Positions 3,238-28,872 of a DNA stretch of 64,000 bases are shown here, in pieces. The DNA is from Acidobacteriota bacterium (lineage in GTDB: Bacteria; Acidobacteriota; UBA4820; DSQY01). Where the stretch lies: positions 39,268 through 103,267 of the forward strand of contig JBMFSH010000008.1 of the NCBI GenBank assembly GCA_049967655.1, read 5' to 3'. The notes under the pieces were generated by a model. It saw only the letters and a list, made by a program, of their open reading frames with translations, did not search any database and was not told where the DNA came from. The first letter of the stretch is position 1. Each line of letters begins with the position of its first letter. A program made the translations under genes and the position numbers.

Positions 3238-5169
<1,932 letters not shown>

Positions 5170-22203: not shown

Positions 22204-22860
22204 TTACGGCCAGAAGTAGGCCTTGAGGATGGAGAAGGCCCGGTCCACGTCGCGCTTTTCCAGAACGATGGTGAGCTCGGTGTAGGTGGAGACGAGCTCC
22301 ACCACGTTGATGCCGGCCCACATCAGCTGTTTGAGGATGGAGTAGTAGACGCCGGGCATGTCCACGATGCGGGGGGTGTAGTGGATGCCCACGGCGGCGA
22401 GATCCCGGAGGCGGGCCACGCGTCGCTCCTGCTCGAACACCCTCTCCACGAGAGGCTCCAGCCCCGCGTTCACCATGACGGTCATCTCGTGCACGCCGTG
22501 GGTGAAGGTCACGAAGGCGTGGCCCTCCCCGCGCACCTCCGCCAGGAGGGCCGTCTGACACCGGAGAATGGTGGGGGAATGCTGAAAGGTGAACTCGGTG
22601 ATGTCGGAGCGCACCGTCACATCCTGGATCTGGCGGCCCACCTTCTTGGGGGTGGAGGCCTTCCGGGCGAGCCGCCCCGAAAGGCGGCTCAAGGCTACGA
22701 TCACGGCCCCCTCACCCACGGGCTTCCGAGCCTCGGCCTCCACCTGGGGGCGGATGGCGCGCGCCACCGCCGAGAGGTTCAGGATCCCCGAGGCCAGTCC
22801 CTCTTCGAGGACCGGCGCCCCCCGGACGATGCGCCCCACGGCCGCGGCGACGGTGATCAT
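22204..22860 (-). CDS. ACT-domain protein with helical N-terminus (aspartate-kinase-regulatory-like); possible regulator
   Basis: C-terminal PGVYYSILKQLMWAGINVVELVSTYTELTIV is ACT-like; no kinase domain; divergent from lysW. Confidence 0.7.
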   Translation of the reverse strand: MITVAAAVGRIVRGAPVLEEGLASGILNLSAVARAIRPQVEAEARKPVGEGAVIVALSRLSGRLARKASTPKKVGRQIQDVTVRSDITEFTFQHSPTILRCQTALLAEVRGEGHAFVTFTHGVHEMTVMVNAGLEPLVERVFEQERRVARLRDLAAVGIHYTPRIVDMPGVYYSILKQLMWAGINVVELVSTYTELTIVLEKRDVDRAFSILKAYFWP

Positions 22861-22910
22861 GTTCGAAATATAACACTTTTCTTCGAATCATGAAAGATTC
22901 ATCCAGATTT

Positions 22911-22939
22911 TTGACGTCCGCGTTCCCGCGGGCCAGAAT
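22911..22939 (+). promoter_or_regulatory. Putative sigma70 promoter of the lysW operon
   Basis: TTGACG-17 bp-CAGAAT, then a GGAGGT RBS before lysW. Confidence 0.55.
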
Positions 22940-22962
22940 GCGCCCTCTTGTGGAGGTGCAAC

Positions 22963-23139
22963 ATGACCGCTTCCTACGCTCTCTGCCCCGTCTGCGACGC
23001 CCAAGTCCCCGTTCCCCCGAACCCTGTGCTTTCCGAACTCCTGGTCTGCGAATCGTGCAGCGTGGCCTTGGAGGTCCGCGCGCTAGACCCCGTGGTCCTG
23101 GACGAGGCCCCCCAGGAAGAAGAGGACTGGGGCCAGTGA
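22963..23139 (+). CDS. lysW: Amino-group carrier protein LysW (variant C-terminus EEEDWGQ)
   Basis: 58 aa acidic protein; zinc ribbon CPVC...CESC; ends APQEEEDWGQ; strong RBS; first gene of a lysX/Y/Z/J cluster. Confidence 0.93.
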   Translation: MTASYALCPVCDAQVPVPPNPVLSELLVCESCSVALEVRALDPVVLDEAPQEEEDWGQ

Positions 23140-24350
23140 GCCTCACCATCCTGGACACCACCCTGCGCGAAGGCGAGCAGACGCCGGGCGTCTGCTTCGA
23201 CGTCCACATCAAGCTCGCCATCGCCGACCTGCTCGACCGCGTGGGGGTGGAGGTGATCGAGGCGGGTCATCCCGCCGTCACCGAGGAGATTCGTCGCTCC
23301 GTGACGCTTCTGGCGGCCGGGGGCCTGGGCCCCCGCGTGGGCGCCCACGCCCGCTCGCTGGAGAGCGACGTGGACCTGGCCCTCGCGTGCGGCGTCGGCT
23401 TCCTCGGAGTCTTCTACTGCGTCACCGACGAGCGGCTGGAGGACCACCGCCAGACCCTGACCCGCGCCCTGGACCGCATCGCTCGCGTCATCGCCTATGC
23501 GCGGGAGCGGCGGCCGGACCTCTGGATCCGCTACACCCCCGAGGACACCGTGCGGAGCCCCTTCGAGAACGTCCTCTCGGCCGCCACGGCCGCCGTGCAC
23601 GCCGGGGCCGACATCATCAGCGTGGCGGACACCACGGGCTTCCTGATCCCGGGGACTCCCCGAGACATGTACGGCTTTGTGGCCCGCCTGCGCGACGGTC
23701 TCGCGGCGCGCGGGGCCTTTCCCAAGATTGCCGTGCACTGCCACAACGATCGCGGGCTTGCCCTCGCCAACGTGCTGGACGGCCTTCGCGCGGGAGCCGA
23801 GGTCGTGGACGCGAGCGTCCTGGGCCTCGGCGAGCGGGCCGGCATCGTGGACCTGGCGACGCTGCTCGCGGTGCTGGCCCACGATTTCGGAGAGGCGGAG
23901 CGGTGGGATCTCACCGTCCTGCCCGAGCTCTACGATCTCGTGTCGCGCTACGCCCGCATCCCGGTTCCGGCGCACTTCCCGGTCACGGGGCGCAACGCCT
24001 TCACCCACTGCGCCGGCATCCACACCCAGGCCGCCACCCGCAACCCGCTGCACTACCAGAGCCTGCCCGCCGAGCTCGTGGGCCGGAAATCGGAGATCGC
24101 CCTCGACCACATGTCGGGGTTGGCCTCGGTCCGCCACTGCCTGGCGCTCCTCGGAATCGAGGCCGGCGCGGAGCTGGCGCGCGCGGTGCTCCGCAGGGTC
24201 AAGGATGTGGGCCAGACGGGCCGCACCGTGGACCTCATCGAGCTCAAGTACATCGTGCGCGCCCTGGAAGCGTCAGAGGGGGGATGGCGCGTTGACGCCG
24301 TCGCGACCTCGCTCGGGCCGGAGCCCGAGGAGAAGACCGGCACCTGCTGA
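23136..24350 (+). CDS. Homocitrate synthase-like (DRE-TIM/LeuA family) enzyme
   Basis: LDTTLREGEQTPG, ADTTG, HCHNDRG, GLGERAG, FTHCAGIH; GTGA overlap with the lysW stop; lysine-operon context. Confidence 0.8.
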   Translation: MSLTILDTTLREGEQTPGVCFDVHIKLAIADLLDRVGVEVIEAGHPAVTEEIRRSVTLLAAGGLGPRVGAHARSLESDVDLALACGVGFLGVFYCVTDERLEDHRQTLTRALDRIARVIAYARERRPDLWIRYTPEDTVRSPFENVLSAATAAVHAGADIISVADTTGFLIPGTPRDMYGFVARLRDGLAARGAFPKIAVHCHNDRGLALANVLDGLRAGAEVVDASVLGLGERAGIVDLATLLAVLAHDFGEAERWDLTVLPELYDLVSRYARIPVPAHFPVTGRNAFTHCAGIHTQAATRNPLHYQSLPAELVGRKSEIALDHMSGLASVRHCLALLGIEAGAELARAVLRRVKDVGQTGRTVDLIELKYIVRALEASEGGWRVDAVATSLGPEPEEKTGTC

Positions 24351-24374: not shown

Positions 24375-25250
24375 ATGGTCCGCATCGGTTTTCTGCATTC
24401 CGTCATCCGACGCGAGGAGAAGCTCCTCCTCGAAACCCTGGCCGCCCAGGCCGGCGTGGAGGTGGTGCCCCTGGATGACCGTACGCTCACCTTCGCCCTG
24501 CCGGGCCGCCCGGCCGCCATGGACCTGGTGCTGGACCGCTCCCTCACGCACTCCAGGGCCCTCTACGCGCTTCGTCTCTTCGAGAGCGCCGGCGTGCGGT
24601 GCGTCAACCCCTCCCGCGCCGTCGCCCTCTGCGGCGACAAGCTCCTGACCAGCATCGCCCTGGCGGAGGCGGGCATCCCTCAGCCAGAGGTTCGGACCGC
24701 CTTCACGCCCGAGGCCGCCCTCGCCGCCATCGAGGAGATGGGCTACCCCGTGGTCCTCAAGCCCTGCGTGGGCTCGTGGGGGCGCCTGCTGGCCAAGGTG
24801 AATGACCGCGACGCGGCGGAGGCGCTGCTCGAACACAAGGTCACCCTCGGCAGCTACCAGCACGGCATCTTCTACATCCAGCGCTACGTGGAGAAGCGCG
24901 GGAGGGACATCCGCGCCTTCGCGGTGGGCGGGGAGTGCGTGGCCGCCATCTACCGGACGTCGGACCACTGGATCACCAACACGGCACGGGGAGGCGTGGC
25001 CACGAACTGCCCCGTGAACGACGGCCTGGCCGATCTCTGCGCGCGGGCGGCGCGGGCCGTGGAGGGCGACGTGGTGGCCCTCGACCTCTTCGAGGGCGAG
25101 GCGGGCTACCTCGTCAACGAGGTCAACCACACCATGGAGTTCAAGAACAGCGTGGCACCCACGGGCGTGGACATCCCCGGGCTCATCGTCCGGCACGTCC
25201 TCTCGCTCGCCCGCGGTGTGGCAAGCCTGGCCGAGGCCGCCCATGGCTAA
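24375..25250 (+). CDS. lysX: Alpha-aminoadipate--LysW ligase (RimK/ATP-grasp)
   Basis: [40 protein letters not shown]. The last two are LysX-type rather than ArgX-type. Confidence 0.92.
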
Positions 25251-26289
25251 GCTCCGCGTGGCCATCGTGGGAGCCTCCGGCTACACGGGCGGGGAACTGC
25301 TGAGAATCTTCCTCCACCACCCGAGCGCCGAGGTGGTCCAGGCCACCTCCGAGCGCCACGCCGGTCGCGGCGTGGGCACGGTGCATCCCAACCTGCGCGG
25401 CCGCAGCTCGCTCTCCTTCAGCAAGCGGGACGACCTGGCCCCCTGCGACGCCCTCTTCCTCTGCCTTCCCCACGGGGAGACGGCGCCCGCCGCCGAGGCC
25501 CTCCTGCCCATGGCCGAGCGGGTGCTGGACCTGAGCGCCGACTTCCGCCTGCGCGACCAAGCTGCCTATCCGCGCTGGTACGGCTTCGACCACCCAAGGC
25601 CCGACCTCTTGGGGCACTTCGTCTACGGCATCCCGGAACTGCACCGCGACCAGATCCGCGCCTCGCGCCTTGTGGCCGTGGCCGGCTGCAACGCCACGGC
25701 CGTCATCCTCGCGCTCCATCCGCTCTTCGCCGAAGGGATCGCCCCGGCCGACGGCACCGTGGTGGAGGTGAAGGTGGGCTCCAGCGAGGGCGGCGCCGCC
25801 TTTTCGGCCTCCAGCCACCACCCCGAACGCGCCCACTGCCTGCGCTCCTATCGCCCCACGGGCCACCGCCACCAGGTGGAAATCGAGCAGGAGCTGGCCC
25901 TTCGCGGCCCCGTCCGCGTGCACCTCTCGGCCACCGCCGTGGACGAGGTCCGCGGCCTCCTCGCCACGGCCCACGTCTTTCCCACCCGGCCCGTCGATGA
26001 GAAGGAGATTTGGCGCCTCTACCGGCGCGCTTACGGAGAGGAGCCCTTCGTCCGCATCGTCAAGGGCCGCGACGGGAACTACCGCTACCCGGAGCCCAAG
26101 GTGCTCTGGGGCACCAACACCTGCGAGGTGGGCTTCGAGCTGGACGCCGCCTCGGGCCGCCTCGTGGTGATCTCCGCCCTGGACAACCTGGTCAAGGGAG
26201 GAGCGGGCCAGGCCGTCCAGTGCTTCAACCTCATGCACGGCTTTCCCGAAACGGCTGGGCTGGAATTCCCCGGCCTCCATCCGGTGTGA
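25243..26289 (+). CDS. lysY: LysW-gamma-aminoadipyl-phosphate reductase (ArgC family)
   Basis: [43 protein letters not shown]. Confidence 0.9.
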
Positions 26290-26291
26290 CC

Positions 26292-26939
26292 ATGTGTCGC
26301 CTCCTCGCCGTCGCCTCCACGAATCCCATCGACGCGGGCCGCCACCTCGATGCCTTCCGGCGCCTCTGCCGACAAAGCCGCGGATACCAGGGCCACGGCT
26401 GGGGCTGCGCCGTCTGGCGGGAGGGACGCTGGGAGCGCTACCGTACGGTGCGTCCCGTCTGGGAGGACGACTACCGGCCCGAGGGCGAGGTGCGCGCCTT
26501 CGTGGCTCACGCCCGCAGCGCCTTCCGCGACGAGGGCATCGAGGAGGAGAACAACATGCCGTTTCTCATGGGGCCGCGGGCCTTCGTCTTCAACGGCGAG
26601 ATGCGGGGCGTCCGGCTGGGCCTTCGCGGGCGGACCGGTGCCGACAAGCTCTTGGGCCTGATCAGCGCCATGGACCGGGGCGACACTGCGGAGGCCATCG
26701 AACGCACGAGGGCGGTCCTGGTCCGGCGAAGCGCGCGCATCCGGGCCTGCAACTTCATCCTCGCGGAGCCGGGGCGCTTCCACCTTCACGTCCTCTTCGA
26801 CGGCGAGGCCGACTACTTCACCATGGTTCAGAGGCGCGCGGACGGCGAGCTCGTGATTTGCTCGGAGCCGTACCCGGAGGATGAAGGCCCATGGGAGCCC
26901 CTGCCCTCGGGGACGCGGAGGGCCATTCCGTGGTCATAG
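26292..26939 (+). CDS. Class II glutamine amidotransferase-like Ntn hydrolase (YafJ/EgtC/Dug3-like)
   Basis: Starts M-C-R-L-L (Cys2 nucleophile); GHGWG, AHARSA, NNMPF, FVFNG, CSEP; 2 nt after the lysY stop and overlapping the lysZ start. Confidence 0.85.
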   Translation: MCRLLAVASTNPIDAGRHLDAFRRLCRQSRGYQGHGWGCAVWREGRWERYRTVRPVWEDDYRPEGEVRAFVAHARSAFRDEGIEEENNMPFLMGPRAFVFNGEMRGVRLGLRGRTGADKLLGLISAMDRGDTAEAIERTRAVLVRRSARIRACNFILAEPGRFHLHVLFDGEADYFTMVQRRADGELVICSEPYPEDEGPWEPLPSGTRRAIPWS

Positions 26940-27721
26940 TGAAGGTAGGCGGAGGGAAGGGCCTCAACCTGGAGGGCCTCGCCGAGGACGTCGCGCGCCT
27001 CGATGAGGGCGTGCTCATCGTGCATGGCGCCAACGCCTGGCGCGACGAGCTGGCCGAGAGGCTCGGCGTGCGCCTGGAGGTGCTCACTTCGGCCAGCGGT
27101 TACGCCAGCGTCCTCTCCGACGAGCCCCTGATGGAGCTCATGCTCATGGCCTACGCTGGGCTGCGCAACAAGCGGCTGGTGGAGGCTTTGTTGCGGCGGG
27201 GCGTGCGCGCCGTTGGGCTCACGGGCCTCGACGGTGCCGTGATTCGCGGGCGCCGGAACGCGGCCATCCGCGCCCGCGAAGGGGACAAGATCGTCCTCAA
27301 GCGCGACCTCTCGGGCAAGCCGCGGGAGGTCAACGCGCCGCTCCTGCGGATGCTGCTCGATGGGGGCTACACGCCCGTCCTCACGGTGCCCATCGCCGAC
27401 GAGAACGGCTTCGCGGTGAACTCGGAGAACGATGAGGTGGTGGCGCTCTTCCAGGAGACCTTCCGCGCCCGGTGCGTGGTCCACCTCATCGAGGCCGCGG
27501 GCCTCCTCGCGGACCGAGCCGCCCCGGCCTCGGCCGTTGCCTCGCTGAGCAGGGACGAACTCGCGCGCCTCGAGGCCGATGCGCCGGGCCGCTTCCGGCG
27601 CAAGCTCCGCGCCATCCTGCGGACGCTGGAGGCTGGGCCCGTGTGGGTCGCCATCGCCGACGGCCGCACCGCCCATCCGCTCGAAGGGGCGCTGTCAGGA
27701 AAGGGGACGGTGATCCAATGA
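26930..27721 (+). CDS. lysZ: LysW-gamma-aminoadipate kinase (ArgB family)
   Basis: VIVKVGG, IVHGAN, SGYASV, GLTGLDG, C-terminal GTVI. Confidence 0.88.
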   Translation: MVIVKVGGGKGLNLEGLAEDVARLDEGVLIVHGANAWRDELAERLGVRLEVLTSASGYASVLSDEPLMELMLMAYAGLRNKRLVEALLRRGVRAVGLTGLDGAVIRGRRNAAIRAREGDKIVLKRDLSGKPREVNAPLLRMLLDGGYTPVLTVPIADENGFAVNSENDEVVALFQETFRARCVVHLIEAAGLLADRAAPASAVASLSRDELARLEADAPGRFRRKLRAILRTLEAGPVWVAIADGRTAHPLEGALSGKGTVIQ

Positions 27722-28872
27722 CCGATTTCGCCTCCATGGAGGAGGCCCACGCCCTACCCCTCTACGCCAAGCGCGGCATCGTCCTCGTGCGCGGGGAGAA
27801 GGCCCGCGTCTGGGACCAGGATGGCCGCTGCTACATTGATTGCGTGGCGGGCCACGGGACGGCCAGCCTCGGCCACTGCCACCCCGCCGTGGTGGAGGCC
27901 GTGCGCCAGCAGGCCGGGCGCCTCATCAGCTGCAGCAACACCTTCTACAACGACGCCCGCGCCCTCTTCCTCGAACGCCTGGCCGGCGCGGCGCCACCGG
28001 GCCTGGGCCGCGCCTTCCTCTGCAACTCCGGCGCCGAGGCGGTGGAGGCCGCTCTCAAGCTCGCCCGCTTCACCACGGGCCGCGCGCGGTTCGTCTGCGC
28101 GAGGCAGGCCTTCCACGGCCGCACCCTCGGCGCCCTGAGCGCCACCCACAACCCACTCTACCGCGACGGCTTCGGCCCTTTGGTGGAAGGCTTCAGCTTC
28201 GTCCCCTTCAACGACCTCCAGGCTGCCGAGGCCGCCGTCACAGGCGAGACGGCGGGCGTCCTCCTGGAGGTGGTCCAGGGGGAGGGCGGGGTGCACGTGG
28301 CGGACGGCGACTACCTGGCCGGCGTCGCGGCCCTCTGCCGGGAGCGCGGCGCGCTCCTGCTCATCGACGAAGTCCAGACGGGCTTCTGCCGCACGGGGCG
28401 CCTCTTCGCCTTCGAGCGCTTCGGCCTCGAGCCCGACCTCGTCTGTCTTGCCAAGGCCATCGCGGGCGGCCTCCCCATGGGCGCCGTGCTCTGTTCGTCC
28501 GCCATCCAGGCCCAGCCCAACAAGCACGGCACCACCTTCGGCGGCAACCCCCTCTGCTGCGCCGCCGCTTCGGCCTCCCTCGGCGTCATGGTGGAGACGC
28601 GGCTCTGGGAGCAGGCCGAGCGAAAGGGCGAGGCCCTCATGGCGCGCCTCGGCGCCATCCGCAGCCCCCGCGTGCGCCAGGTCCGCGGCCTCGGCCTGAT
28701 GGTGGGGATCGAGCTTCGCGAGAAGGTGCGGCCCCACCTGGACCGGCTCGCCGCCGAGGGCGTCCTCGCCCTGCCCGCCGGCCCCAACGTCCTGCGCCTC
28801 TTGCCCCCGCTGACCATCGAGGAGGACGACCTCGACCGCGTGGCCGAGGCCGTTGAGCGCGTCCTGGGCTGA
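27718..28872 (+). CDS. lysJ: LysW-aminoadipate semialdehyde transaminase (ArgD family, PLP)
   Basis: YIDCVAG, CNSGAEA, FHGRT, DEVQTG, AKAIAGG, HGTTFGGNP. Confidence 0.88.
   Translation: MTDFASMEEAHALPLYAKRGIVLVRGEKARVWDQDGRCYIDCVAGHGTASLGHCHPAVVEAVRQQAGRLISCSNTFYNDARALFLERLAGAAPPGLGRAFLCNSGAEAVEAALKLARFTTGRARFVCARQAFHGRTLGALSATHNPLYRDGFGPLVEGFSFVPFNDLQAAEAAVTGETAGVLLEVVQGEGGVHVADGDYLAGVAALCRERGALLLIDEVQTGFCRTGRLFAFERFGLEPDLVCLAKAIAGGLPMGAVLCSSAIQAQPNKHGTTFGGNPLCCAAASASLGVMVETRLWEQAERKGEALMARLGAIRSPRVRQVRGLGLMVGIELREKVRPHLDRLAAEGVLALPAGPNVLRLLPPLTIEEDDLDRVAEAVERVLG

Follow-up and report, generated by a model that had tools for sequence, protein, structure and literature searches.

A putative Ntn-fold cysteine amidohydrolase predicted to take the place of LysK in LysW-dependent lysine operons

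Lysine made through the LysW pathway is attached to the gamma-carboxyl of the terminal glutamate of its carrier protein, LysW, and LysK, the usual final enzyme of the pathway, detaches the finished lysine from the carrier. To our knowledge, characterised LysW/AmCP pathways release their product by means of an M20 metallo-hydrolase. Assembly is performed by LysX, LysZ, LysY and LysJ, which build lysine on LysW via the alpha-amino group (PMC12998189). Two further described systems bear on the locus reported here. EgtC removes a glutamyl residue (PMC9103826), and Dop, the Pup deamidase and depupylase, is a single enzyme that both deamidates a glutamine-ended tag and cleaves the amide on the gamma-carboxyl of its terminal glutamate (PMC8599861). 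The general Ntn mechanism has been described elsewhere (PMC3249071).

Here, we describe a lysW operon from an Acidobacteriota bacterium that carries, in the middle of its lys genes, a gene for an Ntn-fold protein. We consider it highly probable that this protein releases lysine from LysW and thereby replaces LysK as the final enzyme, its predicted catalysis proceeding by unrelated cysteine chemistry. No description of an Ntn-fold LysK alternative was found in the open literature searched. Nor is such an alternative listed in the available text of GapMind 2026 or its six term-searched supplementary files (PMC13759103). The ‘lysW’ of PMC5584792 proved to be an unrelated transporter.

The lys operon and the lysine route of its genome

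The window, that is, the whole 64-kb stretch of DNA analysed, contains the operon in the order lysW-HCS-lysX-lysY-[Ntn]-lysZ-lysJ, confirmed by open reading frames and family profile scores (Table 1). The genes are tightly packed: the GTG start of the homocitrate-synthase-like gene overlaps the lysW stop codon, and the Ntn reading frame begins 2 nt past the stop codon of lysY, while its 3' end overlaps by 10 nt with the inferred start of lysZ. The gene 3' of lysJ is a convergent aminotransferase-V gene, not lysK. lysW, lysX and the Ntn gene each occur once in the genome.

Table 1. Genes of the lys operon and its divergent neighbour, with positions in the window
Feature	Position	Strand	Basis
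DUF7523/ACT-domain gene, 218 aa	22204..22860	-	Weak Pfam DUF7523 and ACT_7 matches, both sub-cut-off; similar Atlas proteins match these families too
lysW carrier protein, 58 aa, C-terminus EDWGQ	22963..23139	+	TIGR01206 57.1 bits, cut-off 53.2
Homocitrate-synthase-like gene	23136..24350	+	TIGR02146 309.5 (best NCBIfam), below cut-off 413.55; PF00682 and PF22617
lysX	24375..25250	+	TIGR02144 332.8, cut-off 275.6; signature F182-I192-T203-N258S259
lysY (ArgC/LysY)	25243..26289	+	TIGR01850 382.9, cut-off 233.6; operon position
Ntn (class II GATase-like) putative cysteine amidohydrolase, 215 aa	26292..26939	+	Met-Cys start; Cys2, Arg75, Asn101, Gly102, Gly116
lysZ, GTG start inferred	26930..27721	+	NF010659 215.5 bits, just under cut-off 223
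lysJ (LysJ/ArgD), last operon gene	27718..28872	+	TIGR00707 429.2, cut-off 410; best match NF042418

A DUF7523/ACT gene divergent from lysW is present in 26 of 48 Ntn-type loci but in none of the 33 LysK-type loci; when the count is restricted to loci showing 1.3 kb or more of sequence upstream of lysX, the figures are 25/46 and 0/27. It may encode an undescribed regulator, sensing lysine or another amino acid, that accompanies the Ntn type of operon. The AT-rich spacer between this gene and lysW (22856-22962) contains two TTCGAA hexamers and an imperfect inverted repeat, a possible operator.

No gene in the genome, which is 99.32% complete, scores over the LysK family cut-off. The best TIGR01902 match reaches 70.4 bits against a cut-off of 163.1, in a search for which 4 of 14 control genomes passed; it belongs to a cluster on another contig that includes argC- and argB-like genes, and its NF003367 score is 85 against 363. 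Five M20 genes occur in the genome. Thus, both the operon order and the missing lysK of the preliminary description stand, the latter now genome-wide.

No lysA over the cut-off was found in this genome (G000; best 94.5 bits against 297.9), nor in G004, G010 or G012; dapF is present in this genome. The only match to the lysA model is a group IV decarboxylase-like gene within the window (about 4075-4956, minus strand), at the same, far sub-cut-off, 94.5 bits. The LysX signature F-I-T-NS, read against Table 1 of PMC12998189, is of the type there assigned to aminoadipate-loading enzymes. With no lysA over the cut-off and a LysX of the aminoadipate type, lysine is probably made through this operon, whose last step is without the usual gene. 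In G004 the operon also includes homoaconitase-like and homoisocitrate-dehydrogenase-like genes, so that the release step alone is left without its usual gene.

Distribution of LysK and the Ntn gene

We examined the occurrence of both enzymes in 85 sampled Acidobacteriota genomes with the lysW/lysX pathway. The Ntn gene is present in 51, LysK in 33, neither in one, and both in none, so that in this sample the test for mutual exclusivity proposed at the outset was passed. Expressed differently, 51 of the 52 pathway genomes without LysK possess the Ntn gene. These whole-genome tests cover the one phylum and combine two samples. The first comprised 401 genomes, 41 of which encode LysX at E 1e-60: 22 have LysK over the cut-off and no Ntn gene, 18 (G000 and G152 included) have the Ntn gene and no LysK over the cut-off, and one has neither. 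The second was drawn from the class of G248, where the LysW model matched in 160 of 251 genomes, and 55 new ones were tested (all new matches in families f52, f64, f99 and f101; G610; six of f103; and five of the 58 f42 matches). lysW lies beside lysX in 44 of these, divided into 33 with Ntn and 11 of LysK type (10 over the cut-off, and G168, whose truncated operon contains part of a lysK); the two enzymes never coincide. The remaining 11, which carry orphan LysW-like genes, no adjacent lysX and neither enzyme, were left out of the counts.

Swaps between LysK and Ntn happen within families. In f101 the Ntn gene is found in 17 of 18 genomes, the exception, G446, having LysK; in f44, G063 has Ntn whereas G669 has LysK (no lysX was detected in its region and it is uncounted). 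Related genomes are not independent, however: the LysX tree of 80 rows needs just three LysK/Ntn switches. Several of the Ntn genomes that lack LysK are assembled into a single contig (G004, G412, G420, G432, G452, G470 and G500). G043 has lysA in addition to its Ntn operon, and G376 (94% complete) is the genome with lysW-lysX-lysY and neither enzyme.

In a scan of 301 genomes, 16 of 19 Ntn matches fall in LysX genomes; the remainder are two weak matches and G027, whose 5'-truncated Ntn piece lacks the N-terminal Cys and in which no lysX or lysW was found. No Ntn match was found on plasmids. In the class of G270, LysK occurs in 3 of 137 genomes, and neither of two matches to the glutamine-ended pattern is a LysW. 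G092 has the Ntn gene and no lysW found in its genome; at this locus (L036:11573-13013) HCS and the ACT gene are shortened and lysX-lysY-Ntn-lysZ-lysJ is apparently intact, reflecting a deletion or an assembly gap.

Metagenomes add a view of the locus. Of 529 confirmed Ntn matches, the best 80 were examined, a set in which near relatives of the query are over-represented. In 78 of these, the Ntn gene is preceded by lysY or followed by lysZ, the two exceptions being contigs of 1.0-1.6 kb. No lysK was found at any of the 80 loci, and 22 of them contain the whole operon, with sequence that starts at lysW and continues for 1.5 kb or more beyond lysJ. A divergent Ntn subfamily sits after lysJ (L041, L043, L045, L151 and L152), the position held by lysK in LysK operons.

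Several unusual LysW-related loci were also recorded. Orphan LysW-like zinc-ribbon genes with no lysX nearby (L205, L210, L211, L213, L214, L236-L239, L258 and L259) end in EDWNE, EDWSE, EDWTE, DDWEE or GEWGEI and are very common in f42 and f103, the LysW model matching in 58 of 59 f42 genomes. Two viral contigs (L176:6403-6555 and L177:8001-8153) each carry an intact lysW whose product ends in EDWGE; no lys operon partner was detected at either locus. The LysK-type operon of G669 (L273, G669:C2:690000-702000) has a divergent LysW tail and neighbours that look broken; transfer or contamination is possible.

Fold, active site and predicted mechanism of the Ntn protein

No M20 or LysK family matches the Ntn protein in Pfam or NCBIfam at E 0.1, and its matches to other families are weak: GATase_4 at E 0.037, and the EgtC model TIGR03442 at 39.6 bits, where two relatives score 50.0 and 31.9 against a cut-off of 218.65. 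The predicted model (pLDDT 92.1) has the class II glutamine-amidotransferase (Ntn alpha-beta-beta-alpha) fold. Its closest solved fold is EgtC (Foldseek E 2.7e-13; Z 24.9, rmsd 1.9 A over 201 residues, 24% identity), followed by GlmS (Z 21.6) and PurF, and the Ntn-fold match spans residues 2-215. The initial comparison with EgtC-type Ntn hydrolases agrees with the N-terminal Cys and the closest fold of the model, although by its profile score the protein is not EgtC. A synthase domain would not fit in the 215-residue reading frame, and the long matches P0310 and P0369 resemble frameshift read-throughs.

The family is large, with 2224 clusters at E 1e-3 and, for a second query, 3145 clusters (90% identity) at E 1e-20; clustering at 50% identity gives 138 representatives that match at E 1e-30 or better. 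Names among its members include Acidobacteriota, Ignavibacteria, Calditrichota, Planctomycetota, Delta- and Gammaproteobacteria, Woesearchaeota and Dojkabacteria; the names found are at the level of MAGs, some annotated ‘glutamine amidotransferase’ at source. The closest relatives (91-92%) are from Acidobacteria MAGs, and a single-protein scan of genome contigs returned only two close relatives.

Cys2 is invariant in two alignments (59/59 and 45/45), and we infer that removal of Met1 exposes it. Among 100 representatives, kept from 151 as full-length with a Cys-Arg/Lys start and hence by a filter that favours Cys, conservation is 94 for Cys2 (with 6 gaps), 100 for Arg75, 99 for Asn101, 97 for Gly102, 99 for Gly116 and 100 for Lys/Arg119. 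Arg75, Asn101 and Gly102 align with the invariant R72, N99 and G100 of a class II alignment of GlmS, PurF and AsnB domains. Conversely, the T-D-[ST]-E motif of those enzymes reads [IT]-G-[AS]-[EQ] in the Ntn family, and Gly116 aligns with an Asp that is invariant in 9/9 GlmS/PurF/AsnB domains from five genomes, an equivalence drawn from a weak profile alignment (probability 52%, E 1.4e-4) and not from superposed residues. In GlmS and PurF, glutamine is held at its alpha-carboxylate by the Arg and at its free alpha-amino group by the Asp of T-D-[ST]-E. At the C-terminal glutamate of LysW the alpha-carboxylate is free but the amino group is engaged in a peptide bond, so that retention of the Arg and loss of the Asp is the pattern to be expected. 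On these residues, Arg75 together with Gly116 in place of Asp would fit a protein C-terminal glutamate as the substrate.

The two proteins are also of complementary charge, with 11 basic columns kept in at least 75% of 45 rows of the Ntn alignment and 11 acidic and one basic residue in the LysW carrier. A predicted complex of Ntn residues 2-215 with LysW scores 0.36, whereas the best of three controls scores 0.00. In calibration, 116 of 157 solved pairs and 2 of 215 mismatched pairs reached the mark; only 18 of the 157 solved pairs, but both mismatches, did so at 0.60 or under. Runs share at least 79% of contacts, with a partner pLDDT of at least 76. The modelling with the acidic LysW that had been proposed at the outset therefore separates the pair from its controls and weakly suggests a complex.

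We propose the following mechanism. After removal of Met1, Cys2 would serve as the nucleophile. The acidic LysW tail would enter the glutamine pocket, where Arg75 would hold the free C-terminal carboxylate of the carrier, Asn101 and Gly102 would form the oxyanion hole, and Gly116, in place of the GlmS/PurF Asp, would let the peptide chain pass. Attack by Cys2 on the gamma-glutamyl amide would allow lysine to leave, and hydrolysis of the resulting gamma-glutamyl thioester would recycle LysW-Glu. The non-homologous replacement of LysK suggested in the preliminary description is hence retained as the predicted role, in accord with the genome-wide lack of lysK, the exclusivity in 85 genomes and, weakly, the complex model.

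Glutamine-ended carriers, alternative readings and known systems

The LysW of the window ends in EDWGQ, encoded by CAG followed by TGA, whereas the three solved LysW sequences matched end in EDWGE. This is not a sequencing error, as the same Gln is found in G067 and G151 of the same genus; the four zinc-ribbon Cys are invariant (45/45). Of 50 Ntn genomes, 13 have a LysW that ends in Gln (no LysW being found in G092, the fifty-first) compared with 0/33 LysK genomes; so do 11 of 44 metagenome loci. The Gln is encoded by CAG in some genes and by CAA in others, and all three stop codons are used. Gln-ended carriers are known beside LysK in ammonia-oxidising archaea, which speaks against a strict link between Gln and the Ntn gene. 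By analogy with Dop, the Ntn site may also deamidate newly made Gln-ended LysW to the Glu form; we think this somewhat probable, and likely a side activity. The priming by the same enzyme that was originally envisaged is consistent with the 13/50 and 0/33 counts, but the kin-aware test gives P ~0.06 and the remaining 37 of the 50 Ntn genomes have Glu-ended carriers. Gln deamidation cannot, therefore, be the reason that the gene is kept.

A different possibility, tentative yet deserving of weight, is that the enzyme frees lysine while Gln-ended LysW is matured otherwise, either by LysK-type or other amidases or through loading of the alpha-carboxyl by LysX, the link between Gln and Ntn being partly lineage history. 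The branch-length test that returned P ~0.06, on a tree of which LysK branches make up about one-fifth, leaves room for this; an independent-pairs test was uninformative, and a Fisher test (p 0.0012, with G669 added to the LysK side) was rejected as overstated because kin are not independent. Set against lineage history, the LysX tree requires at least 13 Q/E changes, all in Ntn rows, genus g34 includes both Q- and E-ended LysW, and no Gln-ended LysW was found in the 33 LysK genomes, G669 or three named plasmid clusters with an M20 hydrolase.

It is very unlikely, in our judgement, that the Ntn protein merely primes or repairs the carrier, by deamidating Gln or removing mis-loaded glutamate, and that an ArgE-like M20 enzyme elsewhere frees the lysine. 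Candidates for such a moonlighting hydrolase can be named: other M20 peptidases are kept in every Ntn genome checked, ArgE-like M20 matches below the cut-off occur in 5/5 genomes checked, G000 has an ArgE/DapE-like M20 in an arg-like cluster, and Thermus LysK itself also acts on acetylated arginine-pathway substrates (PMC12998189). Nevertheless, G004, G043, G151 and G173 have no TIGR01902 match at E 1e-10, the gene is retained in the 37 genomes whose carriers already end in Glu, and neither priming nor proofreading predicts its absence from 33/33 LysK genomes and presence in 51/52 without LysK. Least credible is an ordinary glutaminase, or a gamma-glutamyl hydrolase of small molecules (EgtC/YafJ-like), travelling with the operon, as the best folds (EgtC, GlmS and PurF) and the source annotations might imply, given the EgtC score (39.6 against 218.65 bits), the Gly in the Asp column, an exclusion with lysK left unexplained, and our knowing of no ammonia-requiring step in the LysW lysine pathway.

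If release of lysine by the Ntn protein is correct, a cysteine Ntn enzyme would constitute a clean non-orthologous replacement of LysK, and an annotation gap would be closed in many genomes (3145 clusters at 90% identity), one such gap being in print. The paper on the genome of Caldithrix abyssi places LysWXZYJ and Hcs within a locus of eight tags (Cabys_3146-3153), names no LysK in its available text, and suspects non-orthologous displacement in lysine synthesis (PMC5317091). Calditrichota MAGs hold the Ntn family, and a MAG LysW under the name Caldithrix abyssi ends in Gln. Furthermore, the class II fold would gain a protein-bound substrate, and how Gln-ended carriers can work would be explained. 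It is tempting to go further, to a picture in which we place roughly even confidence: that the Ntn family is a second, metal-free LysW-lysine hydrolase, widespread and undescribed, which also matures Gln-ended carriers; that such a carrier is made inactive and then activated by its own recycling enzyme, following a Pup/Dop-like logic that arose independently in primary metabolism; and that Gln arose repeatedly once the enzyme was present.

Taken together, the Ntn protein resembles several known systems in part. With LysK (TIGR01902, NF003367) it shares operon partners, the missing step, the position after lysJ in one subfamily and the proposed reaction. LysK, however, is an M20 metallopeptidase with metal ions, whereas the Ntn protein has an unrelated sequence and predicted fold and a putative cysteine nucleophile, and the two are never found together in 85 genomes. 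EgtC, the ergothioneine amidohydrolase (PDB 4zfj, 4zfk and 4zfl), is the closest solved fold and likewise a stand-alone Cys-Ntn enzyme that removes a glutamyl group; the Ntn protein differs in falling far under the TIGR03442 cut-off, in its lysW-operon context and in its proposed substrate, the terminal Glu of a protein rather than a small molecule. The class II glutaminase domains of GlmS, PurF and AsnB share the positions of Cys1, Arg and Asn-Gly (Z ~21), yet belong to enzymes with a synthase domain that is absent from the Ntn reading frame, and their T-D-[ST]-E motif is altered in it. Dop provides the functional analogy, having the same dual activity on the terminal residue of a small protein as is proposed for the Ntn protein; unlike it, Dop is glutamine-synthetase-like, uses ADP/phosphate and serves protein tagging rather than biosynthesis, while the Ntn model matches Ntn folds.
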